A DNA stretch of 50,313 bases. It comes from a virus (taxonomy: Duplodnaviria; Caudoviricetes). Positions 240 through 46,128 of the stretch are shown here, piece by piece; position 1 is the first letter of the stretch, and every line of letters starts with the position of its first letter. Made by a program: the position numbers and the translations under genes. A model generated the notes under the pieces. It had not been told where the DNA came from. It did no database searches and saw only the letters and a list, made by a program, of their open reading frames with translations. The stretch spans positions 1 through 50,313 of IMG/VR virus record IMGVR_UViG_3300037424_001491. One strand, 5' to 3'.

Positions 240-277
240 GGGGGTGGGATTGTTAGAATAATTGCCGCACCCTTTTT

Positions 278-307
278 TCAACATGACATATAATGATTAT
301 CAACATG
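278..307 (+). promoter_or_regulatory. Putative island promoter: TATAAT flanked by TCAACATG direct repeats
   Basis: TATAAT 289-294; TCAACATG at 278-285 and 300-307; no good -35. Confidence 0.4.
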
Positions 308-318
308 GGGGGTTTTGA

Positions 319-633
319 TTGACTGAGACTGTTCTGAAAGGTTTCATAAAGCAGGGGATTGAACCTCAAGTTATTGTAGAGGAGGCAATTCCTAGTAAGG
401 GCAAGCCCGCCCAGAAAAGCCTTGGATCTACCACGGTCTTTATTGTTAATATATGTCTTTGGGAGAAAACCTCTACCATTGAGGCATCGAGGGGTGGCCC
501 GCGTGAATGGAGAGACTTCAATAAACTAGTAAAATGGCTGAAGTCTTTAGGGATTCATGACTACAAGGTAAGACTCTTCGCTCCCGAGGATCTTATTAAT
601 CAAACCCTAGCCCTCTCAAATACTGGGGAATAG
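319..633 (+). CDS. Small hypothetical protein, possibly a DNA-binding regulator of the operon
   Basis: 104 aa ORF ending 1 bp before sspB; RGGPREWRDFNKLVKWLKSLGI segment. Confidence 0.55.
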   Translation: MTETVLKGFIKQGIEPQVIVEEAIPSKGKPAQKSLGSTTVFIVNICLWEKTSTIEASRGGPREWRDFNKLVKWLKSLGIHDYKVRLFAPEDLINQTLALSNTGE

Positions 634-634
634 C

Positions 635-1576
635 ATGACAACTATAGAAGCCAAAAGAAATAGTCAAATAATCCACCCTATATTTGCCAGGCACGAAACC
701 TTTCATCCCCGATTTGGGTGGTTAAAGAAGGGGTTTGATAAAGCATCAGAGCAGCCTGATCTTTTTACGGATGATATGGCCCCATCTATTCTTGGCGTTG
801 GGAAAAATATGGTTAAAGCCATCAAGTACTGGTGCATTGCGTATAAAGTACTTGAAGAAGTCCAAGAAAGAGGCAAGGGGAGAATCCTTGTCCCTACCGC
901 TTTTGGCAATAGGTTATTGAATAACGACGGGTGGGATCCGTACCTTGAAGACCCTGCGTCACTTTGGCTTTTGCATTGGAGCCTACTCTCACTTCCAAAC
1001 TATGCTACAACATGGCACTACACTTTTAATGTTTTTAACCGCCCCAGCTTTATGGTGGAAGATATCCAACATGGGATATTTGAGTATGCAAAAAGAGAAT
1101 TTCCCAACAGCCGCATAACAGCTTCTTCTGTGGCTAGAGATGTGAGCTGTCTTCTGAGAATGTATGTCGAAGACTCATCTAGGCAGCTGACTGAGGACTC
1201 GATTGATAGCCCATTTACGGATCTTGGGCTTGTTAAGCAATATGGAGACAGGAGACATTTTGCCATGAGTATTGGGCCTAAGATTGGGCTAACTCATGAA
1301 ATCATTGCGGCCTCTTGCCTAGACTTTGCTGCCACAGCTGAAGAGGGGGCAAAAACAATATCAATAGCTCGCCTTACATATGAGCAGAATAGTCCAGGCC
1401 AGTGCTTTAAGCTTACAGAGGGCATAATTAGTGAAGCAATTGAGAGCGTTGCCATAGCCGTTGAGGATATTGAGATGTCCAAAACTGCTGGCCTTGTGCA
1501 GATGGCCTTCAGTCGAGACCCTTACTCCATCATCAATGATGTGCTAAACGGATATTACAAAAGGATCCATAACTAA
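635..1576 (+). CDS. sspB: DUF4007 family protein, SspB-like
   Basis: FARHETFHPRFGWLKKG, LGVGKNMVKAIKYW and WDPYLEDPASLWLLHW motifs; followed by ATPase and PAPS reductase genes. Confidence 0.85.
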   Translation: MTTIEAKRNSQIIHPIFARHETFHPRFGWLKKGFDKASEQPDLFTDDMAPSILGVGKNMVKAIKYWCIAYKVLEEVQERGKGRILVPTAFGNRLLNNDGWDPYLEDPASLWLLHWSLLSLPNYATTWHYTFNVFNRPSFMVEDIQHGIFEYAKREFPNSRITASSVARDVSCLLRMYVEDSSRQLTEDSIDSPFTDLGLVKQYGDRRHFAMSIGPKIGLTHEIIAASCLDFAATAEEGAKTISIARLTYEQNSPGQCFKLTEGIISEAIESVAIAVEDIEMSKTAGLVQMAFSRDPYSIINDVLNGYYKRIHN

Positions 1577-1577: not shown

Positions 1578-4500
1578 ATGCCCATCTTCGATCAGATAAA
1601 AATCAAGAGAAGATATACAAGATCGGTAAATCTTGAAAGAGATCTTGAGGTAGCCGATAGTGTCAATGGTTACATTATCACGCCGAAGATTCAAAAAGTT
1701 ATTGACCGCTTTGTTGAAGCTCTTACTACACCCGATGCGACAAGAGCCTGGACTATAACTGGCGTCTACGGCACAGGGAAATCCGCATTCGCCCATTTCC
1801 TTTCGGCCCTGTGTTCTTCTAGGGACGATGAAATACGGAAAAATGCAGTCAAGATTTTTAATGCTTCCGGTGGCAGCAGTCGTAAGCTCTCATTGAACCT
1901 ACACGATAAGGGCCTAATAAAGGCAGTAATAACAGCACAAAGAGAGCCGATTGCACATTCGTTGATACGTGGACTTAAGTATGGCGCGGATAGGTACTGG
2001 GCTAGTGCCCCTGGCCCCAAAAGCGAAGTGCGTTCAAGATTGGATAAGCTCTATGTTGATCTATCTGCCGGAAGAGTTATCGAAAACGCCCAAGTATTAA
2101 GTCTGATAAAGGGCTTGGCGTCTAGCTCAAGGGCTGGGATGATCATTGTTATAGATGAACTCGGGAAGAACCTGGAGTATTCCGCACAACACCAATCTTC
2201 AAGCGATTTATACTTGCTTCAGCAGATCGCTGAACTGCCTGCCGGGGCGAAGAAGCCGAAAGTCTTTTTCCTTGGATTGCTCCACCAAGCTTTTTATGAA
2301 TACTCCCATGGGCTTGCTACAACTCAAAGAAATGAATGGATAAAGATTCAAGGCAGGTTTGAAGATATACCGCTTTCAGAATCCACGTCTAGACTTGTGC
2401 ATCTGATTGCAAATGCGATTGACTATGACGCAGCCACTCCAGAGGTAAAAAGGGATCTAGTGAAGTGGGGGGCTACATGGAGGAAGGAGTTAGAGAAGCT
2501 TGAACTTGCAAAGTCCTCTTTAGCCGAATTGCCAGAGCTTTATCCATGTCACCCAATCACAGCCTTAACTCTCCCTACACTTTGCAACAAGTTTTCACAG
2601 AACGATAGGACTCTTTTTACATTTCTTGCCAGCGATGAGCCACATTCATTTAAGAGCTTTTTAAAGTCCACTGAGCTTTCTCTTGAAATGCCCACCTTAA
2701 AGCCCCACCAACTTTACGACTACTTTATTGAGACCGCAGGGATTAATATGGCCTCGCGCTCCCATATGCAAAGGTGGTTAGAGGTGCAAGGGCGCATTGA
2801 CGAGGCAAGCGGCTTGGATGAAGATTCAATCGTTGCCCTTAAGACTATCGGAATACTGAATCTTGTTTCGGGGGCCGCGCCGATAAAAGCGTCATATAAG
2901 ATTCTTAATCTTGCGCTTGTTGATAGTCCATCATCCAAGGCTTATGGGCAATGGGATAACATCATAGAGGGTCTTATTAGTAAAGGGCTTGTCACCTATC
3001 GACGTTTTAATGACGAATATCGTCTTTGGGAAGGAAGCGATTTCGATATTGAAGATGCGGTTTCTGAAGAAAAACAGAAGATTCACGATACCCTCTCTGA
3101 AATTCTTTCTTCCGTGTCCCCGTTAAAGCCAGTCATTGCAAGGAGGCATAGTTATAAAACGGGTGGCATAAGATATTTTGAGAGAGCTTACTCGGAATCC
3201 ATTCCTAACCCCTTGCGATGCAAGTCACCCGATGCTGATGGGATTATTCTATACATCACAGGCGCATTACCAGAAAAGTCAGAAATCCAATCATATACTA
3301 CAGATGGGCGACCCGCTGTGATTATCTGTGCATCAGGGCTTGAATCTTTACGTGTTGCGAGCCGTGAGTATAAAGCCCTATTGAGCATTAGCGAGAATAG
3401 AAGCGAGCTGCAATCAGATGGGGTCGCACGTAAAGAGGTGCGGCAGCGCCTCTTTGTGGCAGAGAAGATTCTGAATGATACATTGAGTATAGCTTTTGAT
3501 TATTCCGGCGAGGCTAAGTGTTGGGTTCTTGGCAAGCAAATAAAGCTATCAGGGACACCTGATTTCAACTCCATGCTGTCTAATATTTGCGATCAGGTTT
3601 ATAGCAAGGGACTTGTCTTATGGAACGAACTAATCAATAGACGTGAATTATCCTCTCAAGGGGCAAAAGCAAGGCGAGAGCTTATTGAAGCCATGCTAAG
3701 CAATGATCACCTTGAGAGACTCGGTATAGTTGGCAATGGGCCTGAGTACAGCATGTATGAATCAGTTCTCAGAAGAACAGGTATACATGCCAAGAGAGAG
3801 ACGGCCTGGTGCATCGACAAGCCCGATAGTGCCTCTGGCATCATGGATGTATGGTCAACAATTGAGGACTTCTGCGTAAACTCTACCGAAACTGCGAGAA
3901 GCTTAGATGGGCTATACGAATTACTTAAATGCCCCCCTTATGGCGTAAAGCCGGGCATTATCCCTGTCCTGCTGCTTGCTGTTATTCAATATCATTCCGA
4001 TTACTTAAGTGTTTACATCGAGGGCTCTTATATCCCAGTTCTCGGGCCAGAGCATTTCGAGCTCCTCGTGAAGAAGCCTGAACTATTCGCAGTGAAATAC
4101 TTCCAGATATCTGGCCTTAAAAGGCAATTGTTCGAGGAGCTGACGGAAATTTTCTCTGCTACGAAGATATCTCCAAAGGGTTTAAGAAACGCTACCCTCT
4201 TAGGGATAGTTAACCCTCTTGTTAAGTTCGTTCAAAAACTTTCAAAGTATAGCCTTCAGGCTGATACTGTCAGCGATGAGGCCAAAGCCGTCAGGAAGGC
4301 ATTGATCGAAGCAAAGGATCCCGATGACCTTCTATTCCGAGCGCTGCCCCAAGCTTGTGGATTTCCTTTTATTGATGCTCATGCCTCTTCAGACAGCAAG
4401 CTAATCGTTTCCTTCAAGAAGAGTCTTATCCAAACCTTGCAGGAGCTTCAGCTCTCATATGATCGTGTTCTTTCATACGGGCAGGTGCTTTTGTCTAATG

Positions 4501-5039
4501 CTTTTTCAGCCCAGCGTGACTTGCAAGGGGTCAGAGAGTACATGAGAGCGATTGCCGGGCGCGTCAACGCAAATACACAGGTTGTCGAACTGAACCTGAA
4601 GCGATTTATCCAGGCGATTATTGAAACAAATTCAAGTGATAAAGCTTGGCTTGAGTCTGTGCTAATGGTAATTGCCGACAAACCAGTTGAGTCATGGACG
4701 GATACGGACAAATTAACCTTTGAAGTAAAGCTGGGAGACCTTATTAAGCGCTTTAAAAACGTAGAGGCGATCATTGATCTCTCTCCTGTGGACAAGAAGG
4801 GCATTGACGCTCAGAAACTCACCATCACTCATCAGGATGGAAGAGAGTTTAGTGAAGTGCTCTGGCTTGAGGAAAAAGAAAAAGCAGAGGTCGCCTCCAT
4901 CATATCAAAGATAAAGCCATATCTCACGGGGAATGATAAGATCAATAAAGCAATCCTGAGTGCCATTATTGAGGAGATCATTCCTAAAGATATATCAGAG
5001 CAGTCCGAATCTAAGAACAAGAAGAAGCATCATGGCTAA
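1578..5039 (+). CDS. sspC: Large P-loop ATPase, SspC-like (BrxC-related)
   Basis: RSVNLERD, Walker A GVYGTGKS, Walker B IVIDELGK, EWIKIQGRF, YPCHP, QNDRTLFTFL, PPYGVK. Confidence 0.85.
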   Translation: MPIFDQIKIKRRYTRSVNLERDLEVADSVNGYIITPKIQKVIDRFVEALTTPDATRAWTITGVYGTGKSAFAHFLSALCSSRDDEIRKNAVKIFNASGGSSRKLSLNLHDKGLIKAVITAQREPIAHSLIRGLKYGADRYWASAPGPKSEVRSRLDKLYVDLSAGRVIENAQVLSLIKGLASSSRAGMIIVIDELGKNLEYSAQHQSSSDLYLLQQIAELPAGAKKPKVFFLGLLHQAFYEYSHGLATTQRNEWIKIQGRFEDIPLSESTSRLVHLIANAIDYDAATPEVKRDLVKWGATWRKELEKLELAKSSLAELPELYPCHPITALTLPTLCNKFSQNDRTLFTFLASDEPHSFKSFLKSTELSLEMPTLKPHQLYDYFIETAGINMASRSHMQRWLEVQGRIDEASGLDEDSIVALKTIGILNLVSGAAPIKASYKILNLALVDSPSSKAYGQWDNIIEGLISKGLVTYRRFNDEYRLWEGSDFDIEDAVSEEKQKIHDTLSEILSSVSPLKPVIARRHSYKTGGIRYFERAYSESIPNPLRCKSPDADGIILYITGALPEKSEIQSYTTDGRPAVIICASGLESLRVASREYKALLSISENRSELQSDGVARKEVRQRLFVAEKILNDTLSIAFDYSGEAKCWVLGKQIKLSGTPDFNSMLSNICDQVYSKGLVLWNELINRRELSSQGAKARRELIEAMLSNDHLERLGIVGNGPEYSMYESVLRRTGIHAKRETAWCIDKPDSASGIMDVWSTIEDFCVNSTETARSLDGLYELLKCPPYGVKPGIIPVLLLAVIQYHSDYLSVYIEGSYIPVLGPEHFELLVKKPELFAVKYFQISGLKRQLFEELTEIFSATKISPKGLRNATLLGIVNPLVKFVQKLSKYSLQADTVSDEAKAVRKALIEAKDPDDLLFRALPQACGFPFIDAHASSDSKLIVSFKKSLIQTLQELQLSYDRVLSYGQVLLSNAFSAQRDLQGVREYMRAIAGRVNANTQVVELNLKRFIQAIIETNSSDKAWLESVLMVIADKPVESWTDTDKLTFEVKLGDLIKRFKNVEAIIDLSPVDKKGIDAQKLTITHQDGREFSEVLWLEEKEKAEVASIISKIKPYLTGNDKINKAILSAIIEEIIPKDISEQSESKNKKKHHG

Positions 5040-5841
5040 GAAGGTAAGGCATATTTTAGGGCTTTCGGGTGGCAAGGATAGTGCGGCCCTTGCGGTCTAC
5101 CTTCACAATAGAGTCCCTGACATTGAGTATTTCTTCTGTGATACGGGCAAAAACTGCGAGCTACCAGAGACCTATGAGTTTCTAGATAGGCTGAAAGCTC
5201 GCCTTGGCATAAAGATTACTTACCTGAGTGCAGAAAGAGGTTTTGATCATTGGCTGAAAGTCTACAATGGCTTCTTGCCCTCTGCCGTGGCTCGATGGTG
5301 CACAAAACAGCTCAAGATCATCCCACTTGAGAAATTCGTTGGCGATGATGAGGCCATAAGCTACATCGCCATTAGAGCCGATGAGGACAGGGATGGCTAT
5401 GTTTCTTCTAAAGAAAACATAAACCCCGTTTTCCCATTCAAAGATGATGGGCTCGTTAAGGATGATGTGTATCGCCTCCTGGAAGAGAGCGGGATCGGCA
5501 TGCCGAAGTATTATGAATGGCGGTCACGCTCTGGATGTTACTTCTGCTTCTTCCAGAGGAAAATTGAATGGATCGGACTACATGACCACCACCCAGATCT
5601 ATTCAAAAAGGCTCAAGCATATGAGACTGAACATTCCGATGGCCGCAAATTCACGTGGAACGATAATGAGACACTGCAAGAGCTTATTGGAAGAAGAGAT
5701 TCAATAGAAGCTGAACACCATGCGGCTGTAGACAGACTAAAGAGTAAGAATCTGATCAAAGCAAACTCTCCCCTTGTGCGGACTCTAGGTGCCCTGGATG
5801 ATGAAGAAGACTTTAACCCGTGCGCTGTCTGCCACTTATAG
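5032..5841 (+). CDS. sspD: PAPS-reductase family protein, SspD-like
   Basis: PP-loop SGGKDS, RWCT, RSGCYFCFFQR, C-terminal CAVC; ATG 5032 overlaps the sspC end. Confidence 0.85.
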   Translation: MAKKVRHILGLSGGKDSAALAVYLHNRVPDIEYFFCDTGKNCELPETYEFLDRLKARLGIKITYLSAERGFDHWLKVYNGFLPSAVARWCTKQLKIIPLEKFVGDDEAISYIAIRADEDRDGYVSSKENINPVFPFKDDGLVKDDVYRLLEESGIGMPKYYEWRSRSGCYFCFFQRKIEWIGLHDHHPDLFKKAQAYETEHSDGRKFTWNDNETLQELIGRRDSIEAEHHAAVDRLKSKNLIKANSPLVRTLGALDDEEDFNPCAVCHL

Positions 5842-5883: not shown

Positions 5884-5892
5884 TGGTATAAT
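5884..5892 (+). promoter_or_regulatory. Extended -10 promoter for the GIY-YIG/DGQHR/GHKL operon
   Basis: TGGTATAAT in the intergenic gap; GAGG RBS before ATG 5986. Confidence 0.5.
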
Positions 5893-5985: not shown

Positions 5986-6198
5986 ATGGCTGTGGATTTG
6001 ATTGATATAGAGGCGATTGATCAGGCAAAATCCCACATGTCTTCCTTTATGCTATGGCCTGAAAAATGGAATGCCTTTAATGTAGATACAAGCAATTACA
6101 CATGGCATGAATTCAGATTCAAAAAGACATCACTTGCTAGGGTTCCAGACCAGATGGGTGTTTATACCTTCGTGATTAAGCCAAACATTGCAAAACAC
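5986..6198 (+). pseudogene. GIY-YIG nuclease, N-terminal fragment (interrupted by prophage)
   Basis: Ends ...GVYTFVIKPNIAKH and joins in frame to PAYAYLMYVGQT at 41726. Confidence 0.85.
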
Positions 6199-6239
6199 TA
6201 TGGGGGAACACGACAGGTAAGTGCCTGAAAACACGACAA
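6199..6239 (+). repeat. Left terminal inverted repeat of the inner prophage
   Basis: 26/41 ungapped matches to the reverse complement of 41682-41722; CRCGAC at offsets 11-16 and 34-39 at both ends. Confidence 0.8.
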
Positions 6240-6293
6240 ATGGGGCTCGGGATTCTTTACACTTACTTTACAGTTACCTAACAAGAACAAATT

Positions 6294-6313
6294 TATCAAA
6301 CGGTCGTTGATCC
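6294..6313 (+). repeat. Subterminal dyad (ATCAA-N7-TTGAT), left copy
   Basis: TATCAAACGGTCGTTGATCC is 18/20 identical to the reverse complement of 41637-41656. Confidence 0.75.
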
Positions 6314-6683
6314 GTTACCGTCAAAGCTCAATACCCTCCTCTAACCACGAGCCAGTATATCAGAGTAGACGCTTCCTCTCGCCGCCCGCCTCGGATCCGC
6401 CGTACACAGTCGGGCGGCGCGCCCCCTATAATCATCGCAAGTGGCTGTGGGGCCACCGCAGTACGAGTCGCCGCTCGCCGTCGCGCGGGCCTGCCGGGTA
6501 GACGTGCCATTGGGCGCGTCGGATACGCGGACTGACCAGTCCGCAGCATGTGTCAATACGGCAAAGGTTGAAGGCAAAGGTGGTCGCAATCTGCGACCGG
6601 TTCCCGACCGAGCTTCCCTCTCCCTCCCTGCCGCCTCGTGTGTCTGTGCAGGAAGAGTCGTCGCGCGGGCCTGACTGGATGGG

Positions 6684-6712
6684 TTGAGTCCCCGCCACTT
6701 TCGTGTTACAAT
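6684..6712 (+). promoter_or_regulatory. Sigma70-like promoter of the lipoprotein moron
   Basis: TTGAGT-17 bp-TACAAT with extended TG. Confidence 0.65.
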
Positions 6713-6740
6713 GCGGCATCACGCCGACTGGAGGGATGGA

Positions 6741-7394
6741 ATGAAGAGGTTGATCTTAATTGCCGTGCTACTGGTTATGCTGGCTGCGTGTGGTCCGCCG
6801 AAGATGATAACACCGACGATGGAGTCATTACAAATCAAAACTGGAGTGACTCAAACTGTAACTGTTGGGAGCCCACTGTACGTAAAGGGGCACGTGAATA
6901 AGCTGCCAGCGGTACACGCGCTGGAGGATTTCACCCATGAAACCATAGGGGCGACGTATAATATACAGGTGGGCGCGACCTACCCGTGCAGGTTTACTGA
7001 TACAAATGACGACCTCTTGTGTGAAGTAATGAAGGGCGCCGTCTACCCTCACTGTGTTGTTGTGGACAGCGCTGGCACAGCCCTCGGATTTAAAAACTGT
7101 TGGGCTGGCGCTTCGCTCAGGTTGCCTGAACCGCGCAAGCTTTTTGAGATAGACTCTGCGATCGTGGATTTTGGCTCTTCAACATCCGAACTTCTCTATA
7201 ATGGCCGCTCGGGCAGTACGATCAAGTTCTCGTATCGTGAGTTTTTCGATAACATGGCCCGGCCAGCCTTTACGCAGGACTTGGTCTATGACCTTGACGA
7301 GTCTTCCGAGATCGCGTTTAAGGCCATGCGCATTAAGGTGCTCAGCGCCACGAATTCAACCATCACCTATACCATCCTCGACGGCAGCCATTAA
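6741..7394 (+). CDS. Lipoprotein (moron; possible superinfection exclusion)
   Basis: Signal peptide MKRLILIAVLLVMLAAC with lipobox; own promoter and terminal hairpin. Confidence 0.75.
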   Translation: MKRLILIAVLLVMLAACGPPKMITPTMESLQIKTGVTQTVTVGSPLYVKGHVNKLPAVHALEDFTHETIGATYNIQVGATYPCRFTDTNDDLLCEVMKGAVYPHCVVVDSAGTALGFKNCWAGASLRLPEPRKLFEIDSAIVDFGSSTSELLYNGRSGSTIKFSYREFFDNMARPAFTQDLVYDLDESSEIAFKAMRIKVLSATNSTITYTILDGSH

Positions 7395-7404
7395 AGCCAG
7401 CGCA

Positions 7405-7441
7405 CACTGGCGTGGGGTGGCATCTCCGCCCCACGCCAGTG
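7405..7441. terminator. Hairpin between the convergent lipoprotein and repressor genes
   Basis: CACTGGCGTGGGGTGG-CATCT-CCGCCCCACGCCAGTG, 16-bp stem with one G-T. Confidence 0.6.
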
Positions 7442-7442
7442 C

Positions 7443-8060
7443 TTAAATCCTTACCCTCCGCCAGACGCCCACCACCTTACCCATGATCCGGTAGTGATCG
7501 TTCGGTCTAAACGCCGGGAACTCCGTGTTGTCGCTCACGAGCCACGGCTCTCCGTCCTTTTCCCTATAGCGCTTGAGCATGGTCTCTCCCCACTCGTCGT
7601 TCACCACGACCACGTCGCCGCTCCTCACGTCCTCCCGAGGCTTCAATAGAACGTAATCGCCGTCCTTAACCGTCGGGCTCATACTCTCTCCCCTGACCAC
7701 CAAGGCGTAGCTCCCGGGCGGGGCATCCGGGAGGCTCACGTAATCCACGATGAGGTCTTGCGGCACCTGGTCGGGGAAGCCCGCTGGCACGCGCCCGAGC
7801 ACTGGCACGCTCACCACCGGCACTGCGGACGGGATGGGCGGGGCCGTATGCATCTCACCCTTACCTGTCAGTATCCAATCAATGGATGTATGCACAATCG
7901 TGGCAATGCGCTGTAGGCTTTGGGCTCCGGGCTCTCGCTCTCCTGAGAGGTAGCTTTGTAGTGTCCTATAGGGAATTCCGCATGTTGCAGCGAAGTCTTT
8001 AACATTAAGGCCCGTTTCCTTTATTGCGCTCGCAAGGCGTGAAGATACACTATCGTGCAT
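7443..8060 (-). CDS. CI/LexA-like repressor (XRE HTH + S24 peptidase)
   Basis: N-terminal HTH, VPAG cleavage site, VRGESMSP catalytic Ser, MLKR catalytic Lys. Confidence 0.92.
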   Translation of the reverse strand: MHDSVSSRLASAIKETGLNVKDFAATCGIPYRTLQSYLSGEREPGAQSLQRIATIVHTSIDWILTGKGEMHTAPPIPSAVPVVSVPVLGRVPAGFPDQVPQDLIVDYVSLPDAPPGSYALVVRGESMSPTVKDGDYVLLKPREDVRSGDVVVVNDEWGETMLKRYREKDGEPWLVSDNTEFPAFRPNDHYRIMGKVVGVWRRVRI

Positions 8061-8097
8061 TTTTCGCTTGGCTCCTGTGCACGATTGTGTGTATCAT
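8045..8097. promoter_or_regulatory. Repressor operators and early promoter
   Basis: Related 16-bp dyads ATACACTATCGTGCAT (8045-8060), GTGCACGATTGTGTGT (8077-8092) and ATGCACAATCGTGGCA (7890-7905); TTGGCT-18 bp-TATCAT. Confidence 0.6.
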
Positions 8098-8107
8098 CCC
8101 TCAATAA

Positions 8108-8614: not shown

Positions 8615-8853
8615 ACTGCCCGCTCCGCGCACCGGCGTACCGTGAACTGATAGGCGTGATTGGTATCGAGGCGACCGTGAAGCTCGCGCGCGCGTATGGT
8701 GGCGCTAGCCTGTACCTCCCTCGCGTCCCGGAGGGCGCGCTTGAGCGCGGCAGCCTCGGGCTCACGCCGGAGGAGCGGGCTGACCTGCTCGACCGCATCA
8801 ACGCGGGCACGGTCGATTTCCCCCCCGCCTCGGCGTCCGAGTTGATGCGCTGA
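8611..8853 (+). CDS. Mor-like small protein lacking the C-terminal HTH
   Basis: IGIEATVKLARAYGGASLYLP matches the N-terminal part of both Mor proteins in the window. Confidence 0.6.
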   Translation: MDCPLRAPAYRELIGVIGIEATVKLARAYGGASLYLPRVPEGALERGSLGLTPEERADLLDRINAGTVDFPPASASELMR

Positions 8854-8861
8854 TACGACAC

Positions 8862-10534: not shown

Positions 10535-10592
10535 TCCGGCCTCCTCCTCTCTGAACCTGCCCTGATTCTAACATTTCCGGCCCGGTGCGTAA

Positions 10593-12454: not shown

Positions 12455-12455
12455 G

Positions 12456-33696: not shown

Positions 33697-33709
33697 GAGG
33701 CAACACACG

Positions 33710-37965: not shown

Positions 37966-37966
37966 T

Positions 37967-39700
37967 ATGCCGACCTTCGACGGGCACAGGGCCGAGGCCT
38001 CGCGCGAGCACAAGTGGATGGCCACCCTCGTGCTGGACGCCTGCACGCTCACCTTCGGGACAGGCGCATGCACGGCCACGGGGCCGAAGTGCTACAACAC
38101 GTATGACACCTGCCGCGACCGCGCGAACTATGCCCCGGAGCCCAAACGGTACCGCTACACCACGCACGAGACACCCTTCCACGGACCGCGCCAGCTGGTC
38201 AGGGAAGTCAGGCTCGGCCCGACCGCGATCCACAAGGACAAGACCCAGACCGGGAGGGCGTATATCACGTGCAACAACGCGCTCACGCGCGATACCGTGC
38301 TCGACAAGTACATCGCCACCCGCCCGGATCCTCTCGTGGAAGCCCCCGAGTTCACCAAGCTGAAGGCGCGCCACCGCGACAGTTACGAGGGCCGTCCGGT
38401 GGAGATCCGCGAGGGCTTCGACGACCTGGCCGAGGCGGACTGGCGGCTCGCCTTCGTCGGGCAGATCGAGAAGTTCATCACCAAGGGCTCCACGGCCAGC
38501 ATAGAGGCCCCCGGCCTCGGCCGCGACCTCTCCAAGGTCAAGCCGGTGGCCGAGATCTCCGTGACCACCATCACCGAGATCTCGGCTTCGTCGGATTACG
38601 TCCCCCTGTCAAGCATCGAGGAGATTCCCGTGCCCGGAGTGGGCGAGACGCTCCATTTAGCCATCGACGAGAAGGAGATCGTCGGATACACTGGGGTGGA
38701 CACCGAGGCCTACCGCGTCACGGGGGTGACGCGCGGCCTGTACGGCACAGCGGCAGTGGCCCACGCCCGTGACGTCAAGGTCGGCCTTGCCCGCGTGTAC
38801 GACGGGCATCCCTTCGACATCATCAAGGATCAGATACTGCTCGGCGATGCCGGATATCCCTCCGCGCTCATCGACACGGCCAGCTTCGCGAAGTGGCGCG
38901 ATTTCCCCGACACGCCCGTGGACTTTCAGGCAGTCATTACAGACACGGACGTGGACCTTCAGACCCTTATTTTCGAGATCGTGGATCTGCTGGAGGCGCG
39001 GTTCTGGGAGAATGAGGACGGGCAGCTCACCATCAGGCGGAACGTACATAACGAGCCGGGCAAGGTCTACGAGCACTTCACGGACGCGGCGGCGTCCACC
39101 GTGCCGGTCGTGACGCGCGACCTCGACGAGCGCCACACGTCCACCTGGATACTCTGGAACCGGGGCGTATTCGACGACCACGACGAGGCCCGCTCGTACT
39201 CGCGCGTGGCCACCTCGCCAGACGTGGGCCTTGAGGGAGAGCACGCCCTCGGCAGGAAGATCCCCTACGTGATCAGAAACCGCTGGCACAGGCGGGGGAT
39301 GGCCACGGACAAGGCCCTGAACAACTTCAACCGCAACGCGGCCATCCGGAAGACCTGGCGCTTGAAGCTCGGCCCGCACACCTACGAGGCCGAGTACGGG
39401 CTCGAAAAGTCGCACGTGCGCGTGGGCGATTACGTCTGGCTCAGCACCTCGCACATCCTGAACGCGGACACGAGCCCTTACGACCGCGAGGCCTTCGAGG
39501 TGGTCTACCGCGAGCGCCTCCGTAGCGGCCGCATCAGGTTCAAGTTCAGGGAGTGCCTGCGCTCGGGCGTGGCGTACATTGCGCCGAACGATACGCCCAA
39601 ATGGTCGGACGCGTCGGTGCAGCAGCGCAGGTGGTACGGGTTCATATTCAGCGACGACCTGCTCGACCCCGACCCCGACCGGCACACGGTCATGTACTAG
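37967..39700 (+). CDS. Tail tip/hub protein
   Basis: CTATGPKCYNTYDTC Cys cluster; RGLYGTAAVAH; position. Confidence 0.65.
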   Translation: MPTFDGHRAEASREHKWMATLVLDACTLTFGTGACTATGPKCYNTYDTCRDRANYAPEPKRYRYTTHETPFHGPRQLVREVRLGPTAIHKDKTQTGRAYITCNNALTRDTVLDKYIATRPDPLVEAPEFTKLKARHRDSYEGRPVEIREGFDDLAEADWRLAFVGQIEKFITKGSTASIEAPGLGRDLSKVKPVAEISVTTITEISASSDYVPLSSIEEIPVPGVGETLHLAIDEKEIVGYTGVDTEAYRVTGVTRGLYGTAAVAHARDVKVGLARVYDGHPFDIIKDQILLGDAGYPSALIDTASFAKWRDFPDTPVDFQAVITDTDVDLQTLIFEIVDLLEARFWENEDGQLTIRRNVHNEPGKVYEHFTDAAASTVPVVTRDLDERHTSTWILWNRGVFDDHDEARSYSRVATSPDVGLEGEHALGRKIPYVIRNRWHRRGMATDKALNNFNRNAAIRKTWRLKLGPHTYEAEYGLEKSHVRVGDYVWLSTSHILNADTSPYDREAFEVVYRERLRSGRIRFKFRECLRSGVAYIAPNDTPKWSDASVQQRRWYGFIFSDDLLDPDPDRHTVMY

Positions 39701-39712
39701 GAGGAGGACACA

Positions 39713-40717
39713 ATGCCGCCATTCGATGCCATTTTGCAGTCCGAGATCGATGTCGAAGACCCCGTAACCCAGGGGCTCTGCCAGAAGATCAAGGATAACT
39801 TCGACGCCCACGAGTCGGCCATCGGCACGATCGTGGGGGGCAACCTCCCGAACCCGTGGTTCGAGGTGGACGACGGGGGCACGCCCCCGATGCCCTTGAA
39901 CTGGGACGTGTCGACCCTCAGCGGCGGCACGGTGGTGCTCGACGGGGATACCGCGTTCAAGGGGAGCCACGCCCTGAAATTCACGCATCCGGGCGGGGCA
40001 GATAACGGCGGTGGCACGGCGAATAGCGACCTCGCCCCTATCTGCCCGGAGGCTCCCGCCGCCTTGTTCGTGGGGTTCTCCGCCACGAACGCAAGCGTGC
40101 GCGTGACGTTCAGCGTGGACTATTACGATAAGGACAAGGTCTTTATCGACGGCTCCACGGAAATCCTGTACAACAAGGTATCGGTAGTGCCCATGCCAAA
40201 GACCGTCGTTGCCGTACCGCTGACGCCCCCAGCCACCGCACGATACGTGAGCGCGACATGCGTCATGGGCGACACGGACACGGATCCCGGCTCGGCAACG
40301 ACCATCGTGCTCGGGCTCTGCGACCTGGTCACCGGCCCGGTAGTGAGGCTTTATACGCCCGGGGCGGTCACGCTTATCGGTAATGATTCAGCTCGGGTGG
40401 TTAATTCAACGACTCCGGCGGAAGGCCGGGTAGGCGTTGTGAAACGGTTCGGGGTAGTCACGCTAAGCTGGACGATCACGGGCAGTGCAAATAACCGCTT
40501 TTATTATTCGCGGGCGTATATCAATGGCTCACCTGCTGCGGCCCAGTATTCGTTCTTCGACGCGGGCACGCAGGATTACTCGGAGGATCTGGTGGTGCGG
40601 CCGGGGGACAGGGTCTCGGTCTACGTCTGGGATACGTATGGCACGGCGAGCGCCCTGAGTATCTTGAATTTCAGGATAAAGACCGCCGACATATTGACCG
40701 AGAAGATGTTGGTCTAG
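39713..40717 (+). CDS. Putative receptor-binding/tail fibre protein
   Basis: Last tail gene; CBM-like NPWFE...GSHALKF; AT-richer variable C-terminus. Confidence 0.6.
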   Translation: MPPFDAILQSEIDVEDPVTQGLCQKIKDNFDAHESAIGTIVGGNLPNPWFEVDDGGTPPMPLNWDVSTLSGGTVVLDGDTAFKGSHALKFTHPGGADNGGGTANSDLAPICPEAPAALFVGFSATNASVRVTFSVDYYDKDKVFIDGSTEILYNKVSVVPMPKTVVAVPLTPPATARYVSATCVMGDTDTDPGSATTIVLGLCDLVTGPVVRLYTPGAVTLIGNDSARVVNSTTPAEGRVGVVKRFGVVTLSWTITGSANNRFYYSRAYINGSPAAAQYSFFDAGTQDYSEDLVVRPGDRVSVYVWDTYGTASALSILNFRIKTADILTEKMLV

Positions 40718-40730
40718 TAGTAAAGCCAGA

Positions 40731-40805
40731 GGAGCGCGGGCGCGCCGCTGCAACGGCGCACCGACCCATGATCAACCATGGATCACCCGAAACGGGCCAC
40801 GCTCC
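40731..40805 (-). ncRNA. Candidate 75-nt tRNA-like antisense RNA in the MTase leader
   Basis: GGAGCGUG/CGCGCUCC, CCCG-UUU-CGGG, UGAUC-CAUGGUU-GAUCA, GGUGCGCCG-UUGCAG-CGGCGCGCC; G-U pairs only on the minus strand; TGCTACACT extended -10 at 40840-40832. Confidence 0.6.
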
Positions 40806-40856
40806 CCGTGCGCCGTCGACGACGCGGGGATAGTGTAGCACGCTGGGGGGTATCAC

Positions 40857-41654
40857 ATGAAGAGTTTTCTGGCGTATCTGGGAGGCAAGTCCAAGCTTGC
40901 CGGGACGATCGTACCCATGATTCCGCAGCACCGCTGTTACTGCGAGGTCTTCGCCGGGGCCGCGTGGGTGCTCTTCCGTAAGGAGCCCTCGAAGGTCGAG
41001 ATCATCAACGACATCAACTTCGATCTCATCAACCTTTACCGCGTCGTGAAGCATCACCTGGAGGAGTTCGTCCGGTACTTCAAGTGGGCACTCGTCTCCC
41101 GCGATGAGTTCGAGCGCCTGAAAGGGGAGTCCCCGGAGACCCTGACGGACATCCAGCGGGCCGCCCGTTTCTACTACCTCCTGAAGGGTGGGTTCGGGGC
41201 AAAGGTCACGAGCCCGGCTTTCGGCATCTCCCCAACCCAGCCCTCGCGCCTGAACCTCCTGCGTATCGAGGAGGATCTCTCGGCAGCCCACCTCCGGCTC
41301 TCGCGGGTCTATATCGAGAACCTACCTTATGCTGAACTCATCCGCCGCCACGACCGGCCCGAGACCTTCTTCTATGTCGACCCGCCGTACTACGGCCATG
41401 AGAACGACTACGGCAAGGGAGTATTCGGGCGGGAGGACTTCACCACCCTGCGCGACACGCTTGCCGGGGTACAGGGCAGGTTCCTTATGTCCATCAACGA
41501 CGCAGGGGTTATTCGGAAGCTGTTTGCGGATTTCCATATTCAGGAGGCTGCCACTACCTATACGGCCGCTGGAGCCCACAAAGCCAAGCGCGTCAAGGAA
41601 CTGCTGATCTCCAATTACAAGGTAGGGAAGCGGGGTGGATCAACGGCTGTTTGA
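40857..41654 (+). CDS. DNA adenine methyltransferase (D12/Dam-like) at the mom position
   Basis: YLGGKSKLA, EVFAGAAWV, IINDIN, YVDPPYY. Confidence 0.92.
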   Translation: MKSFLAYLGGKSKLAGTIVPMIPQHRCYCEVFAGAAWVLFRKEPSKVEIINDINFDLINLYRVVKHHLEEFVRYFKWALVSRDEFERLKGESPETLTDIQRAARFYYLLKGGFGAKVTSPAFGISPTQPSRLNLLRIEEDLSAAHLRLSRVYIENLPYAELIRRHDRPETFFYVDPPYYGHENDYGKGVFGREDFTTLRDTLAGVQGRFLMSINDAGVIRKLFADFHIQEAATTYTAAGAHKAKRVKELLISNYKVGKRGGSTAV

Positions 41655-41722
41655 TATAATCAAATCCGACCGGCTACCGTATTGTCGCGTTTCCAAGCGC
41701 AGTTAAGTCGCGCGCCGCTATA
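41637..41722 (-). repeat. Right end: subterminal dyad (41637-41656) and terminal IR (41682-41722)
   Basis: Reverse complement TATAGCGGCGCGCGAC...GGAAACGCGACAA mirrors the left end. Confidence 0.8.
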
Positions 41723-41725
41723 CAC

Positions 41726-42013
41726 CCTGCGTATGCATATTTAATGTACGTTGGACAAACAACTCGTCAAAATCTAAGAAAACGCTTTGCCCAGTATCTA
41801 GAAGAGCAAGCAGGAACAAAGAAAAGTCCGCGACCAAAAGTCCAATATATCCTTAGAAAATATGCAGATAATATTTACTTCATTTGCATGCCACTAGATG
41901 CTCAGTTGGATCCTACTACTGTTGAAAATGAACTCCTTAAAGCGATGAAGCCACCCATGAACGATAGATTCCCAGCTGAGGTTAGCAGGGTGTATAGAGG
42001 TATCTTACCGTGA
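41726..42013 (+). pseudogene. GIY-YIG nuclease, C-terminal fragment
   Basis: YVGQT, LRKRF, VENELL and PPMND motifs; GTGA overlap with the DGQHR gene. Confidence 0.85.
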
Positions 42014-43308
42014 CAAAAGCATCCACCGATATAATATGGCTACCGTCCCTAAGGGCTCAGATGGGGGATTGGATTTATTACATTTCATACATGAAATTGA
42101 GTGACATAGCCCAACGGGTTAGGTATGCGGAGGAAATTCATACGAGCAAGACCCTGAACGATCTACTCCAGAGGACGCTAACCTCTCGCTCACAGAAAAT
42201 TGCGGATTACCTCGTTAAGCAAGAGCAACGTTTCTTTAACACATTGATCATTGGGGTTTATGACGGATCGCCCAGTTGGTATGCATTGTCAGTAAACAAG
42301 AACCAGCGCTTTGACCCATCTGACATTCCCGAAGATCTTGAGGGGGCTATCGGATATTTATCTCTCACGGGCAGGGAAAAGCTATTTGCCATCGATGGGC
42401 AGCATAGAGTGGCCGGCATTCATAGGGCCATCAAGCGCAATGCTTCAATTGGCGATGATGAGGTCTCCGTGATATTCCTCTCTGCCAAAAAAGATCCCGA
42501 AAGCATGAAACGTACAAGGCGATTGTTTAGCACTTTAAACCGTTACGCAAAAGCCGTTTCAAAGCGGGATATTATTGCCTTAGACGAAGACGATACTGTA
42601 GCCATTATAATAAGACAATTGCTTGATGAGTATCCTCTATTTTATGACGAGAGGATTAATACTCGCGTGATTGGCAAAAGCATCCCCTCCAATGATAAAG
42701 CAAGCATCACGACTCTAGTCGCTTTATATGATGCGGTAAATATTTACTTGCCTGATTCAAATGACTCTAAATGGAAGGCCTTCCTTAGTGTAAGACCTAA
42801 CGAAAATATTATTCATGAATATTATCAAAAGACTGTTGAACTTTTAGACTGCCTACAAAGACATTTTCCTGAACTACGCCATGTCTCAAAAGATCATACT
42901 CAAACAATAAAATACCGGCATTCAGAGGGTGGGCATCTGCTCTTTAGGCCTGTCGGCTTATTGATGATTGCGCATGTCATAAAACTCTGCGTGCAACATG
43001 GGTTCACGTTAAATGAAGCTGTGAGGAGAATTTCTAAAGTAAATTTAGATTTATCTGCAAACCCTTGGGCTGGCTTGTTGTGGGAGTCAATTAAAAAACG
43101 AATGATCACACGTAAGGAAAATCAACAAGTCGCAATAGTTCTTCTCTTTTACATAATTGGGGGGGACTTGGCTCATATTCGTACAAATCCCACTAAGCTG
43201 CTAGAGCAATACGGTAGCGCAATAAACTGGGACGAGGAAGACTTGGGGAGCCTTAAATTACCAAGAAGGTTGCGATTTAGGCAACAAGGGAGGGGCGAAA
43301 ATGGATGA
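42010..43308 (+). CDS. DGQHR-domain (DndB/ParB-like) protein
   Basis: LQRTL, RFFNTLI, LFAIDGQHRVAGI, RRLFSTLNRYAKAVS. Confidence 0.85.
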   Translation: MTKASTDIIWLPSLRAQMGDWIYYISYMKLSDIAQRVRYAEEIHTSKTLNDLLQRTLTSRSQKIADYLVKQEQRFFNTLIIGVYDGSPSWYALSVNKNQRFDPSDIPEDLEGAIGYLSLTGREKLFAIDGQHRVAGIHRAIKRNASIGDDEVSVIFLSAKKDPESMKRTRRLFSTLNRYAKAVSKRDIIALDEDDTVAIIIRQLLDEYPLFYDERINTRVIGKSIPSNDKASITTLVALYDAVNIYLPDSNDSKWKAFLSVRPNENIIHEYYQKTVELLDCLQRHFPELRHVSKDHTQTIKYRHSEGGHLLFRPVGLLMIAHVIKLCVQHGFTLNEAVRRISKVNLDLSANPWAGLLWESIKKRMITRKENQQVAIVLLFYIIGGDLAHIRTNPTKLLEQYGSAINWDEEDLGSLKLPRRLRFRQQGRGENG

Positions 43309-43609
43309 GAAGATCGGAGAGGCTGTGAAACGTCTCATTGAAGAACAATTTTATTACGTTCAATACCCTAAGGCCCAGGAAACTTCCATATGGGTGGATA
43401 GAGATGGCAGGGTCACCCTTATTGATAAGCTTGACTCCGATCACCTAGAGAGATGCATACATTTAGTCGAGAGGGATATACTTAATTTCAAGAAAACATG
43501 GAAATCAGATATGCGCTACGCTGAACTTGAAGAAATCATAATAACAAGGGCAGAGGCATTGCTTTCCACAATGAAATCTGAATTCCGCAGTAGAGCTGAT
43601 AACATTTAG
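43301..43609 (+). CDS. Hypothetical protein
   Basis: Overlapping co-oriented 102-aa ORF with a GGAGG RBS. Confidence 0.6.
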   Translation: MDEKIGEAVKRLIEEQFYYVQYPKAQETSIWVDRDGRVTLIDKLDSDHLERCIHLVERDILNFKKTWKSDMRYAELEEIIITRAEALLSTMKSEFRSRADNI

Positions 43610-43619
43610 GGGTGCATGT

Positions 43620-46061
43620 ATGGATGGCCTCTTTAGACAGCTTTACAATGCCCCAACTGAAGATGCTGTTAACAGTGTCCTCCAATCCAATCCTATTTTT
43701 CACGATCCTGCCAATTGGCAACCTTACGGAGATACCGAAAGCAATTTCAGCGTAATCGAAAACCAGCAGGCTAATCCTGTAGCTGCCCTTGTCGAAAAGC
43801 TTACCAATTCAATTGACGCGCTCCTTATGAAGAAGTGCCTTGAAGCAGGGATTGACCCAAGATCACACGACGCTCCCCGGACTATGGACGCAGCAGTGCG
43901 CATGTTCTATAACTACGAGAACTTCGATGTTTCAGAGTATAGACGGCAGGTAGCTGAGGACATACAGATTCTGGCTGACCCCAATAGCCCCAAAATGAAC
44001 ACCTCCCTCATCATTTATGACAATGGAGAGGGTCAGCACCCTCAGGCCTTCCCTGGCACTTTCTTGTCGCTACTGCGTGGCAACAAAAACGAGATTAAAT
44101 TCGTTCAAGGCAAATACAATATGGGCGGAGCTGGTGCTGTAGTCTATTGCGGCGAAAATAGATATCAGCTTGTCGCATCAAAGCGCTTTGACAATTCAGG
44201 CAACTTCGGTTTTACCTTGGTCAGAATCCACCCTTTGACAGCGGAAGAAGCTGACACGAAGAAAAACACCTATTACGAATACTTTTGTCCAGAGGGTAGG
44301 ATTCCAGAGTTCCCTATAGATGAGCTTGAATTGAATCTCTTTAATCGGAAATTTCGGACGGGATCTCTCATTAAGCTGTATTCCTATGATCTGCCCCCAG
44401 GCAGTAAGTCCGTTATTTCAAGAGACCTAAATCAGAGCGTTAATGAATATCTTCATAACCCCGCCCTGCCCATTTACATCATTGACCGTAAGGAAAGATA
44501 CCCGAAGGATACGGGTCTTGAGCGCATTATGTTTGGGCTTTCCAATAGGCTACAAGACCAAAAAAACAAGTATGTGGATCGTCAGATATCACTCGTGATC
44601 AATGGGAATAAAGAAGTGGGGGATATCAAGATTTACGCGACTCTTTTTAAGGTCAAGAGCGAAGAAAAGTCAGTCAAGGAATTCAAACAGACAATCCAGA
44701 ACGAATTCTGCAAAAACAATATGAGCGTCGCCTTTAGCCTCAACGGGCAAGTCCATGGCTTCTATACTTCCGAGTTCATCACAAGAGCGTTGAAATGGAA
44801 GCTATTTAAGGACTATCTCCTCATACATGTTGACTGCACACACCTCTCGCTCCATTACAGGAACAACCTTTTTATGGCATCCAGAGATCGCCTTAAGAAC
44901 GGGAAAGAGGCTGATCACATCAGGCGGCTGCTTGCTGATCACATAAGGAAAAGTGAATTAAGCGACATCTACAAGCAAAGGAAAGACTCGTTCTCCGCAG
45001 ACACCAGTGATGCAAATGATCTACTGAAGTCCTTTTCCAAGGGTTTGCCGTTAAATCCTGAAATGCTGAAGTTACTGAAGCAAACCTTTAAACTTGAGGA
45101 GCCCGACAACTCCAAAAAGGAAAAGGATACTAAGCAAAATAAGTCAAAGAAGCCTCCCCCTGATAAGGAACCGTTCGTTTCCAAGAGATATCCATCTGTG
45201 TTTAATATTAACGGAAAGCCTAACAATGAAGGAAAGGTCATGAAAGGCATCCCCATGCCTGGCGATAAAACCATAATGTTCAGCACTGATGTGGAGGATG
45301 AATACTTTGATCGCATTAAAGACAGGGGTGACCTGAAGCTCTTTGTCCTCAACCGTGGGACTAATGATGCAGGAGGAGGAACCGCCCCAGGTGCACCAAG
45401 GGAGATTGAGGATTTTTTCCAGGTCGTCAAATCCAATCCGCATGAGGGAACCATTAGGGTTAATCTGCAGCCAAGGGGTACGCTTCAAGTGGGGGAAGAA
45501 ATCGAGATCAGGGCGGATCTTAGTTCGGTTGAGACACCTGATGAGCCCTTGCAAGCGGTTTTTTACGTGAAAATAGAACAAATGCAGGTTAAGGATCCTA
45601 AGCCCGAAGAGCCTGAAGTTCCTCAGATAGGCTTGCCCGAAATGATCCTGGTCTATAAAGATGACAAAGAAGGCGTCACTACATGGAGCACTCTGGAAGA
45701 GCACGGCATATCCATGGATGATTACGAGATCATGGCTACGATTGCCAATGACAAAGATGAACTTGAGAAGATATTCATTAATATGGACAGCAGCCTAATC
45801 AAGTCATATAAATCAAAGCTTGATGGCGATGAAGCCTTACGTGTTGCCGATAATAAATATGCCTCTCAAGTCTATTTCCATACGCTATTCCTGTACTCAA
45901 TCCTTAAGCAAAAAAACTATGGCTTTTCAGTTGATGGTGATAATAATACCGACAAACCCGTTGAGATTGAAGACGTTTTGCGTGACCTGTTTAGGTCTAG
46001 CTATGGTGAGTTTCTCTTGCGGTTCGGCGGGACAGAGGAACTTATTGCCGCTATAGATTAG
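43620..46061 (+). CDS. GHKL (MORC/HSP90-like) ATPase domain protein
   Basis: LVEKLTNSIDA (N box), YDNGEG (G1), QGKYNMGGAG (G2); long uncharacterised C-terminus. Confidence 0.75.
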   Translation: MDGLFRQLYNAPTEDAVNSVLQSNPIFHDPANWQPYGDTESNFSVIENQQANPVAALVEKLTNSIDALLMKKCLEAGIDPRSHDAPRTMDAAVRMFYNYENFDVSEYRRQVAEDIQILADPNSPKMNTSLIIYDNGEGQHPQAFPGTFLSLLRGNKNEIKFVQGKYNMGGAGAVVYCGENRYQLVASKRFDNSGNFGFTLVRIHPLTAEEADTKKNTYYEYFCPEGRIPEFPIDELELNLFNRKFRTGSLIKLYSYDLPPGSKSVISRDLNQSVNEYLHNPALPIYIIDRKERYPKDTGLERIMFGLSNRLQDQKNKYVDRQISLVINGNKEVGDIKIYATLFKVKSEEKSVKEFKQTIQNEFCKNNMSVAFSLNGQVHGFYTSEFITRALKWKLFKDYLLIHVDCTHLSLHYRNNLFMASRDRLKNGKEADHIRRLLADHIRKSELSDIYKQRKDSFSADTSDANDLLKSFSKGLPLNPEMLKLLKQTFKLEEPDNSKKEKDTKQNKSKKPPPDKEPFVSKRYPSVFNINGKPNNEGKVMKGIPMPGDKTIMFSTDVEDEYFDRIKDRGDLKLFVLNRGTNDAGGGTAPGAPREIEDFFQVVKSNPHEGTIRVNLQPRGTLQVGEEIEIRADLSSVETPDEPLQAVFYVKIEQMQVKDPKPEEPEVPQIGLPEMILVYKDDKEGVTTWSTLEEHGISMDDYEIMATIANDKDELEKIFINMDSSLIKSYKSKLDGDEALRVADNKYASQVYFHTLFLYSILKQKNYGFSVDGDNNTDKPVEIEDVLRDLFRSSYGEFLLRFGGTEELIAAID

Positions 46062-46128
46062 ACTTGGTTCCTGGCTCTCCAGCTTTTCCTGTTCCATAAT
46101 AAAGCGATTTAGCTGCGCTCCCCCCCCC

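Follow-up and report, generated by a model that had tools for sequence, protein, structure and literature searches.

Which genes serve as partners of the phosphorothioate (PT) modification genes sspB, sspC and sspD is a question raised by the virus record IMGVR_UViG_3300037424_001491, a single metagenome-type record of 50,313 bp (the whole of which we call the window) in which a gene cassette headed by sspBCD lies in one Mu-like prophage and is interrupted by a second. To our knowledge few partner modules of PT-based defence have been described (SspE, SspFGH, DndFGH, PbeABCD and DndI). According to the consulted part of PMC8092258, 83.9% of 2,678 sspBCD loci have neither sspE nor sspFGH, and further partners have been proposed. 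The original prediction, made from the letters of the window, was that the four genes following sspBCD may form a new PT-sensing restriction or abortive module. Our analysis suggests that the cassette is probably an Ssp phosphorothioation defence locus that was acquired horizontally and is carried by a phage, and that two separable partner modules lie 3' of sspBCD, Module 1 being a GHKL ATPase and Module 2 a pair of genes coding for GIY-YIG and DGQHR proteins. The new element is chiefly a large, unnamed GHKL family whose genes accompany sspBCD in many phyla. The GIY-YIG+DGQHR pair comes second, and both are concrete, testable candidates for a missing partner.

With the inner prophage removed, the gene order of the cassette is orf104-sspB-sspC-sspD-GIY-YIG-DGQHR-orf102-GHKL (Table 1). 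The PADLOC profiles for SspB, SspC and SspD are covered nearly end to end, identifying an SspBCD module. SspC has a Walker A motif (GVYGTGKS) at residue 62, and SspD has an SGGKDS motif and matches Pfam PAPS_reduct (3.1e-09); the sspD open reading frame (ORF) is open from 4960 and its probable start is the ATG at 5032. As predicted, four tightly packed genes follow in the same orientation, all on the forward strand and with overlaps or a 10-nt gap between successive genes; none of the four matches a system covered by PADLOC 2.0. The reported absence of an SspE-like protein, PglZ/BrxL or a cysteine desulfurase also held, with no match to GmrSD/DUF262, SspE, PglZ, BrxL or Aminotran_5 in 13 cassette and flanking ORFs. 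For the cysteine desulfurase (SspA/IscS type), the lack of an Aminotran_5 match among the cassette ORFs applies to a record that consists of this contig only, and IscS is able to replace SspA as sulfur donor according to passages of PMC8092258. The four genes had further been credited with an extended -10 of their own, and the motif TGGTATAAT is indeed present in the spacer between sspD and the GIY-YIG gene, but with two matches in the window versus 0.36 expected, and two reached by 8 of 100 shuffles, it is only weakly above chance. Generic scans of the cassette for promoters and terminators gave no more matches than expected from shuffled sequence. The second copy, TGATATAAT at 41652-41660, is located at the 3' end of the Dam methylase gene near the right end of the inner prophage, from which it could read outward.

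The product of the last cassette gene contains the N box (E..N..D), G1 (DxGxG) and G2 motifs followed by an S5-fold domain, and is thus a GHKL ATPase of the Bergerat fold. Across 121 aligned sequences there is no variation at D134, G136 and G138 and almost none at E59, N63 and D66. A model based on this alignment has a predicted local distance difference test (pLDDT) score of 90.8 (an earlier one from a 16-row alignment, with a pLDDT of 53, was set aside), and the predicted structure resembles GRP94, MORC3 and MutL, with an Ig-like sandwich at approximately residues 523-656 and a C-terminal domain without assignment. More than 4035 homologues were found, and 1730 clusters at 50% identity; the sources name them 'hypothetical' or 'HATPase'. 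Pfam, NCBIfam, PADLOC and PHROGs returned nothing beyond weak TopoVI-B similarity, searches of the PDB with GHKL profiles A1 and A2 gave nothing meaningful, and the ESM Atlas yielded only unnamed or HATPase clusters.

Relatives of this protein are strongly associated with ssp genes. A scan of contigs from one genome per species gave 498 candidate stretches, 483 of which encode a GHKL relative, and neighbourhoods were counted in the best 80 genome loci of these 483 relatives, which span many phyla, and in the best 79 metagenome loci. Searches by tblastn with the window proteins found ssp genes in 68 of the 80 genome loci (SspC in 67, SspD in 67 and SspB in 61), DGQHR in 30, the C-terminal and N-terminal parts of GIY-YIG in 17 and 14 respectively, and orf102 and orf104 in 0. 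Where the full flank of 10 kb on each side is available, at least two ssp genes are present within 10 kb in 49/49 genome loci (all three in 42) and 15/15 metagenome loci. The arrangement is flexible: of the 49 genome loci with full flanks, 8 have the GHKL gene immediately next to a same-strand ssp gene, 28 have it on the strand of the nearest ssp gene (median distance 2066 nt), and 9 show no further recurring neighbour. SspB is present in 18 of 401 sampled Bacteroidota genomes, and the GHKL gene is found in 4 of those 18; search seeds make up two of these four genomes, and without the seeds the count is 2 of 16. The remaining SspB-positive Bacteroidota loci have different neighbours. The GHKL gene thus stands beside ssp genes wherever the flank suffices and most sspBCD loci do without it, suggesting a one-way dependence of GHKL on Ssp, the pattern expected if the protein relies on PT modification and does not itself produce it.

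We propose that this GHKL+S5 ATPase of about 815 residues is an Ssp-dependent defence component with the rank of SspE or SspFGH. As in MutL and MORC, ATP would drive a dimerising clamp or matchmaker on DNA, and this would read the PT state that SspBCD has set. Together with the SspB/SspC machinery, or else with whichever nuclease-type neighbour is present, it would license damage to DNA that lacks the modification or block the replication of such DNA.

Module 2 has a different distribution. The DGQHR protein matches Pfam DndB with 114.1 bits (cut-off 29.1) and TIGR03187 with 104.7 bits (cut-off 58.85); a search of the PDB with this protein gave nothing meaningful. Its small partner is identified as a GIY-YIG/URI nuclease from conserved motifs, a profile match and Pfam matches in its homologues: Y58, Y77, G79 and R88 are the same in all of 22 homologues and E134 in nearly all, the family profile matches the GIY-YIG domain of UvrC (1yd6) at E 7.8e-4 with the motifs aligned, and Pfam GIY_YIG_2 and PF01541 match 15 and 5 of the 22, respectively. 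The two genes overlap by 4 nt in the window (GIY-YIG ends at 42013 and DGQHR starts at 42010), and their stop and start coordinates overlap in related loci too. A GIY-YIG match never occurs without DGQHR (19/19 genome and 6/6 metagenome loci, 25/25 together), whereas only 42 of the 159 GHKL loci have a DGQHR match and 117, many of them short, lack one. The pair is located either before or after the GHKL gene, depending on the locus. In locus L081 it lies directly 3' of sspD with no GHKL gene, and in L082 (G093:C1:60000-79900) it ends a dndC/dndD-like cluster, so that it is not restricted to Ssp-type PT systems. On this distribution the pair is an independent PT-associated module.

These distributions bear on the original prediction in several ways. 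Recurrence beside sspBCD is borne out for both the GHKL gene and the GIY-YIG/DGQHR pair, and neither matches a described system in the PADLOC searches, as a new PT-sensing restriction or abortive module would require; however, they do not form one unit. The pair occurs without GHKL in L081, most GHKL loci have no DGQHR match, and orf102 has no homologues, its sequence giving no hit except itself among 5.8 billion proteins and no tblastn match in 161 related loci. In the closest relatives the DGQHR and GHKL genes are 20-120 nt apart, and orf102 is, as judged from these searches, not a conserved part of the system. The suggestion that a sensor and a nuclease are placed on separate genes fits the overlapping DGQHR and GIY-YIG genes; PT sensing, restriction and abortive infection are putative roles.

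We infer that the pair may be a split, two-gene analogue of SspE, because SspE joins a ParB-like NTPase to a nuclease and sspE is called the equivalent of DndB in the consulted portion of a reappraisal from the Aravind laboratory (PMC10853773). The translationally coupled GIY-YIG nuclease and DndB/ParB-like DGQHR protein would then share between them the functions of the single SspE polypeptide. A complex prediction for the DGQHR and GIY-YIG proteins of L030 scored 0.26 versus a mark of 0.32. The DGQHR protein resembles the DndB of dndBCDE in its DGQHR motif, its membership of the Pfam DndB family and its association with PT modification genes, and differs in that its gene lies 3' of those genes; DndB is reported in the available part of PMC4507180 to be a regulator of PT modification and not an effector, which counts against an effector role for the pair. 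The DGQHR protein could accordingly be a DndB-type regulator of the ssp operon and the GIY-YIG and GHKL genes unrelated neighbours in a defence island, as the highly variable, island-like neighbourhoods might suggest. We regard this as improbable: the protein is far under the cut-off of the DndB equivalog TIGR03233 (62 versus 328 bits), its gene overlaps a GIY-YIG gene that never occurs without it, and the linkage of GHKL to ssp genes in 64/64 full-flank loci from many phyla is unlike chance co-location.

The genes surrounding sspBCD and GHKL were classified by clustering of crude ORF calls together with Pfam and PADLOC. A cysteine desulfurase is present in 19 loci (adjacent in 16 of the 49 full-flank loci), and a DUF262-only, NsnA-like protein in 18, often with a protein kinase (12) or SIR2 (4); DGQHR fusion proteins are found in 4 loci, and other HATPase_c_3 proteins also occur. 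The pattern is one of a constant core with exchangeable effectors, yet it is also how defence islands look.

Several further observations weigh against the GHKL protein being a restriction or sensing component. True SspE is present in 4 of the loci (4/49 full-flank loci; PADLOC SspE 2e-260 in L079) and PbeA/PbeC-like genes also co-occur with the GHKL gene, so that its product might have an accessory role and not be an effector. The GHKL protein showed neither a nuclease motif nor a nuclease domain, in searches in which the C-terminal 150 or so residues were not queried alone. Among loci with shorter flanks, 12 of 31 from genomes and 26 of 64 from metagenomes have no ssp gene (the other 19 and 38 have at least one); short contigs may explain these. 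A scan of viral contigs for the GHKL family found two distant relatives (36% and 26% identical) with no ssp gene in the available DNA, the linkage was assessed for relatives of at least 47% identity, and the locus ORFs come from a crude longest-ORF script. That the protein depends on PT, acts in defence, serves as a clamp with a licensing role or contacts other components physically is proposed from linkage and fold.

The corresponding alternative is that the GHKL ATPase serves modification, for instance by loading or recycling SspB/SspC on DNA or by setting PT density, and has no part in restriction or sensing. Its strict linkage to sspBCD, its lack of a nuclease domain and its presence alongside independent effectors (SspE, PbeA/C-like, DUF262 with kinase, DUF262 with SIR2) would all suit such a role, as would the nature of the GHKL+S5 modules in MutL and topoisomerases, which the consulted text of PMC2292703 presents as engines, not nucleases. 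We think this unlikely, however, since 14 of the 18 SspB-positive Bacteroidota genomes lack a GHKL gene, and L081 has none even though its SspC and SspD are 49-67% identical to those of a GHKL-bearing locus; moreover, passages of PMC8092258 describe DNA modification in E. coli by SspBCD systems that have no protein of this kind.

A more ambitious form of the proposal, which we put forward tentatively, makes the GHKL ATPase the core reader of a widespread and undescribed Ssp class, an ATP-gated clamp that would sense PT and license interchangeable effectors. If this were true, those effectors would be GIY-YIG+DGQHR, SspE, DUF262 with kinase, DUF262 with SIR2 and the PbeA/C-like genes, and the core reader would explain some of the ~84% of sspBCD loci for which no restriction partner is known. 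MORC-type ATPases are chromatin silencers in eukaryotes, and a core reader would link them to the reading of a DNA backbone modification.

Two arrangements among the neighbouring genes are recorded here in their own right. In loci of Bacteroidota/Ignavibacteria type (L013, L014, L025, L029, L039, L042, L044, L053, L056, L075 and others), a DUF262-only protein of about 370 residues (PADLOC NsnA-like, 1.6e-27) is encoded 3' of sspD together with a protein kinase of about 300 residues or a SIR2 protein. This resembles a further split of an SspE-like sensor from its effector, the effector here not being a nuclease. In L015 (13366-17896), L173 and L174, PbeA-like (1.3e-193) and PbeC-like genes lie directly beside sspBCD, often with a gene for a protein of about 790 residues with two HATPase domains and no PADLOC match. 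PbeA and PbeC have so far been described with Dnd systems.

One of the closest known systems is SspABCD-SspE, reportedly described as a PT-sensing Ssp defence by Xiong et al. in 2020; SspE is also described in PMC8092258 and PMC13251355. The sspBCD modification core is common to both, and the combination of a ParB/DndB-like domain with a nuclease is matched by the DGQHR+GIY-YIG pair. SspE, however, unites DUF262/GmrSD_N (DGQQR) and a DUF1524/GmrSD_C HNH domain in one protein, and no cassette ORF of this kind is seen with Pfam and PADLOC; here the sensor-like and nuclease parts are on two genes, the nuclease is of the GIY-YIG type, the cassette has no sspA, and there is a GHKL ATPase, which is not described for SspE systems. 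SspFGH is likewise a multi-gene partner module 3' of sspBCD; in the parts of PMC8092258 consulted, SspF has a Walker A motif, SspH an FtsK/SpoIIIE-like C-terminus, and SspFGH is said to damage non-PT DNA and to be able to coexist with SspE. Set against these descriptions, the GIY-YIG fragments, DGQHR, orf102 and GHKL differ in having no Walker A, and the ATPase is of the GHKL Bergerat fold and not of the FtsK type. PADLOC, in which the presence of SspFGH models is unconfirmed, gave no match to SspFGH. The GHKL protein was also considered as SspF or SspH, and rejected for its lack of a Walker A and its fold, and as PbeD, which is described as a 152-residue cognate of DndE and is thus excluded.

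The prokaryotic MORC and paraMORC families provide a parallel for the GHKL protein. In the consulted text of Iyer, Abhiman and Aravind (2008; PMC2292703), these GHKL ATPases are known from restriction-modification operons, where their partners include SF2 helicases, methylases and Vsr or RE-fold nucleases, and they are proposed to loop or clamp DNA between recognition and cleavage sites. Compared by description, the two share a GHKL+S5 module with a family-specific C-terminal extension and an occurrence in conflict systems; they differ in that the paraMORC partner genes are those just named and not ssp. Within that text Dnd, ParB and PAPS are absent, the single 'sulfur' belongs to a species name, and no link to PT is made; GHKL, MORC and Hsp90 do not occur in the accessible portion of PMC10853773. 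No paper linking Ssp to a GHKL protein was found in a search whose scope was open-access full text and bioRxiv, with subscription journals and supplements outside it, and no GHKL partner is apparent from the titles and abstract beginnings of recent SspBCD (from 2022) and SspABCD (from 2023) papers.

Two metagenome loci provide uninterrupted counterparts of the cassette. L087 has the order sspB-C-D-GIY-YIG-DGQHR-GHKL, which is repeated in L095 with an orf104 homologue (51% identical) at the corresponding position, in 38-45% GC (guanine plus cytosine) DNA with no clear phage genes; the proteins of both loci are 47-81% identical to those of the window. Among isolates, Dysgonomonas hofstadii DSM 104969 (L006) and Longimonas halophila KCTC 42399 (L052) likewise combine sspBCD with GIY-YIG, DGQHR and GHKL genes in one locus. 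This synteny supports the reconstruction made by removing the inner prophage, and also a low-GC donor. By tblastn orf104 is absent from the other 160 loci, and its product shows only weak KorA/phrog_4595 similarity. The GHKL gene of L095 (9992-11510) is broken, with ORFs of 97 and 429 residues that match residues 1-408 only.

The inner prophage (6199-41721) lies within the cassette, as had been predicted, and we find its target to be the first of the four genes. It interrupts the GIY-YIG gene exactly between two codons, with the GIY motif on one side and the YIG motif on the other; the N-terminal fragment stops four residues past a conserved Pro-x-Ile-Ala stretch, its ORF reading on into the prophage end to 6228, and against intact homologues (159-178 residues) the two fragments abut exactly, with no residue lost or gained. 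The prophage is flanked by an ACAC duplication; with the next base the copies are ACACT and ACACC, and a Mu-type 5-bp duplication would thus have one mismatch. By eye, each prophage end has two CGAC-containing repeats with equal spacing and in inverted orientation. Since the prophage sits in the GIY-YIG gene, Module 2 is presumably inactivated and the downstream genes cut off from the cassette promoters, with 35.5 kb of prophage now in between; with its nuclease gene disrupted, the module as it stands in the window is probably not fully functional. On this reading a second Mu-like phage has transposed into the gene with the loss of Module 2, and the window offers a natural example in which one transposable phage bears a defence cassette as a moron and another has knocked it out. 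That a Mu-like prophage sits in the nuclease gene of a related prophage's defence cassette may reflect chance, or selection if a superinfecting phage survived by knocking out the resident defence.

PHROGs annotation of the window shows two related Mu-like transposable phages, one nested within the cassette of the other. The cassette is 41-46% GC versus 59-72% in phage genes; along the window GC is 0.44-0.49 at 1-6000 and 0.43-0.44 at 42001-46000, against 0.57-0.70 at 7001-41000 and 0.61-0.66 past 46001. The outer phage is collinear with the inner one, offset by ~26.2 kb, at 68-94% nucleotide identity. The activator fragment at the left end of the window aligns with inner-phage 19779-19845 (72%), the cassette opens just past its stop, and outer 46136 corresponds to inner 20030, just 3' of the inner phage's activator gene. 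The low-GC DNA between the activator gene and the outer late region is therefore a 10.4-kb moron-type insertion.

We consider the nested insertion to be real. A chimera assembled from two related Mu-like phages is the obvious alternative, given the similar stretches that the phages have in common and a window that rests on one 50-kb metagenome-type contig. The sole contig that clearly bridges the left junction (covering 3000-9500 with no difference) comes from run X1, a possible source of this very DNA. However, both junctions lie in the unique low-GC cassette, outside the DNA common to both phages, and the residue-exact abutment of the GIY-YIG fragments, the inverted ends with their paired repeats and the ACAC duplication also speak against a chimera. 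In run X2, from a second study, an identical 410-nt contig (5799-6208) reaches 10 nt into the prophage end, below the 31 nt from which we count a junction as bridged, and the cassette and the prophage are each represented among identical short contigs of that run. In runs X1-X3 no contig shows the uninterrupted cassette, nor was a joint reported, the X3 matches being short fragments. Altogether a chimera seems very improbable to us.

Table 1. Features of the window, with strand and basis of assignment
Feature	Position	Strand	Basis or remark
Outer Mu-like prophage late transcriptional activator (Mor/C-like), C-terminal part	3..239	+	phrog_836 2.7e-15
orf104, cassette leader gene	319..633	+	41-44% GC
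sspB (DUF4007)	635..1576	+	Pfam DUF4007 1e-92; PADLOC SspB 1.4e-109
sspC (BrxC-like P-loop ATPase)	1578..5039	+	PADLOC SspC E=0, 1260 bits
sspD (PAPS-reductase/PP-loop)	5032..5841	+	PADLOC SspD 6.3e-111, residues 30-292
Extended -10-like motif TGGTATAAT	5884..5892	+	sspD/GIY-YIG spacer, 5' of GIY-YIG gene
GIY-YIG gene, N-terminal fragment (GVY motif)	5986..6198	+	alignment to intact homologues; tblastn matches next to DGQHR genes
ACAC duplication, left copy	6195..6198	.	flanks inner prophage
Inner Mu-like transposable prophage, ~35.5 kb	6199..41721	+	PHROGs, GC 0.57-0.70
Inner-prophage repressor (CI-like)	7443-8060	-	PHROGs
Inner-prophage MuA-type transposase	12456-14048		phrog_310
Inner-prophage gam	16286-16789		phrog_491
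Inner-prophage amidase	20307-20858		PHROGs
Inner-prophage terL	22383-23672		PHROGs
Inner-prophage portal	23884-25554		PHROGs
Inner-prophage major head	29195-30070		PHROGs
Inner-prophage tape measure	34472-36712		PHROGs
Dam-type N6-adenine methyltransferase, final inner-prophage gene	40857-41654		Pfam MethyltransfD12 1.9e-29; PADLOC MTase_II 4.1e-76
ACAC duplication, right copy	41722..41725	.	flanks inner prophage
GIY-YIG gene, C-terminal fragment (YVG, R, E, N motifs)	41726..42013	+	alignment to intact homologues
DGQHR-domain (DndB/ParB-like) protein, 432 aa	42010..43308	+	DGQHR at residue 129; Pfam DndB 9.2e-33
orf102, orphan small ORF (102 aa)	43301..43609	+	8-nt overlap with DGQHR gene
GHKL+S5 (MORC/Hsp90/MutL-like) ATPase, 813 aa	43620..46061	+	starts 10 nt after orf102
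Outer Mu-like prophage resumes: late-promoter-like region, amidase 46590-47075, terminase 48793-49953	46136..50313	+

In addition to the genes listed in Table 1, the inner prophage has a Ner-like regulator, a Mu F-like protein (phrog_220), a protease and tail genes (all from PHROGs). Its left 8 kb has no close relative among phage records at the DNA level by blastn, and its portal is less than 40% identical to those of Mu-like phages. A repeat of 50-150 nt with a GC-rich hairpin (GAAGGGGnACAnGGTTCCCCTTC) is present at 17256-17412 and 20262-20313 in the inner phage and at 46373-46530 in the outer phage, and may be a terminator or regulatory element of both.

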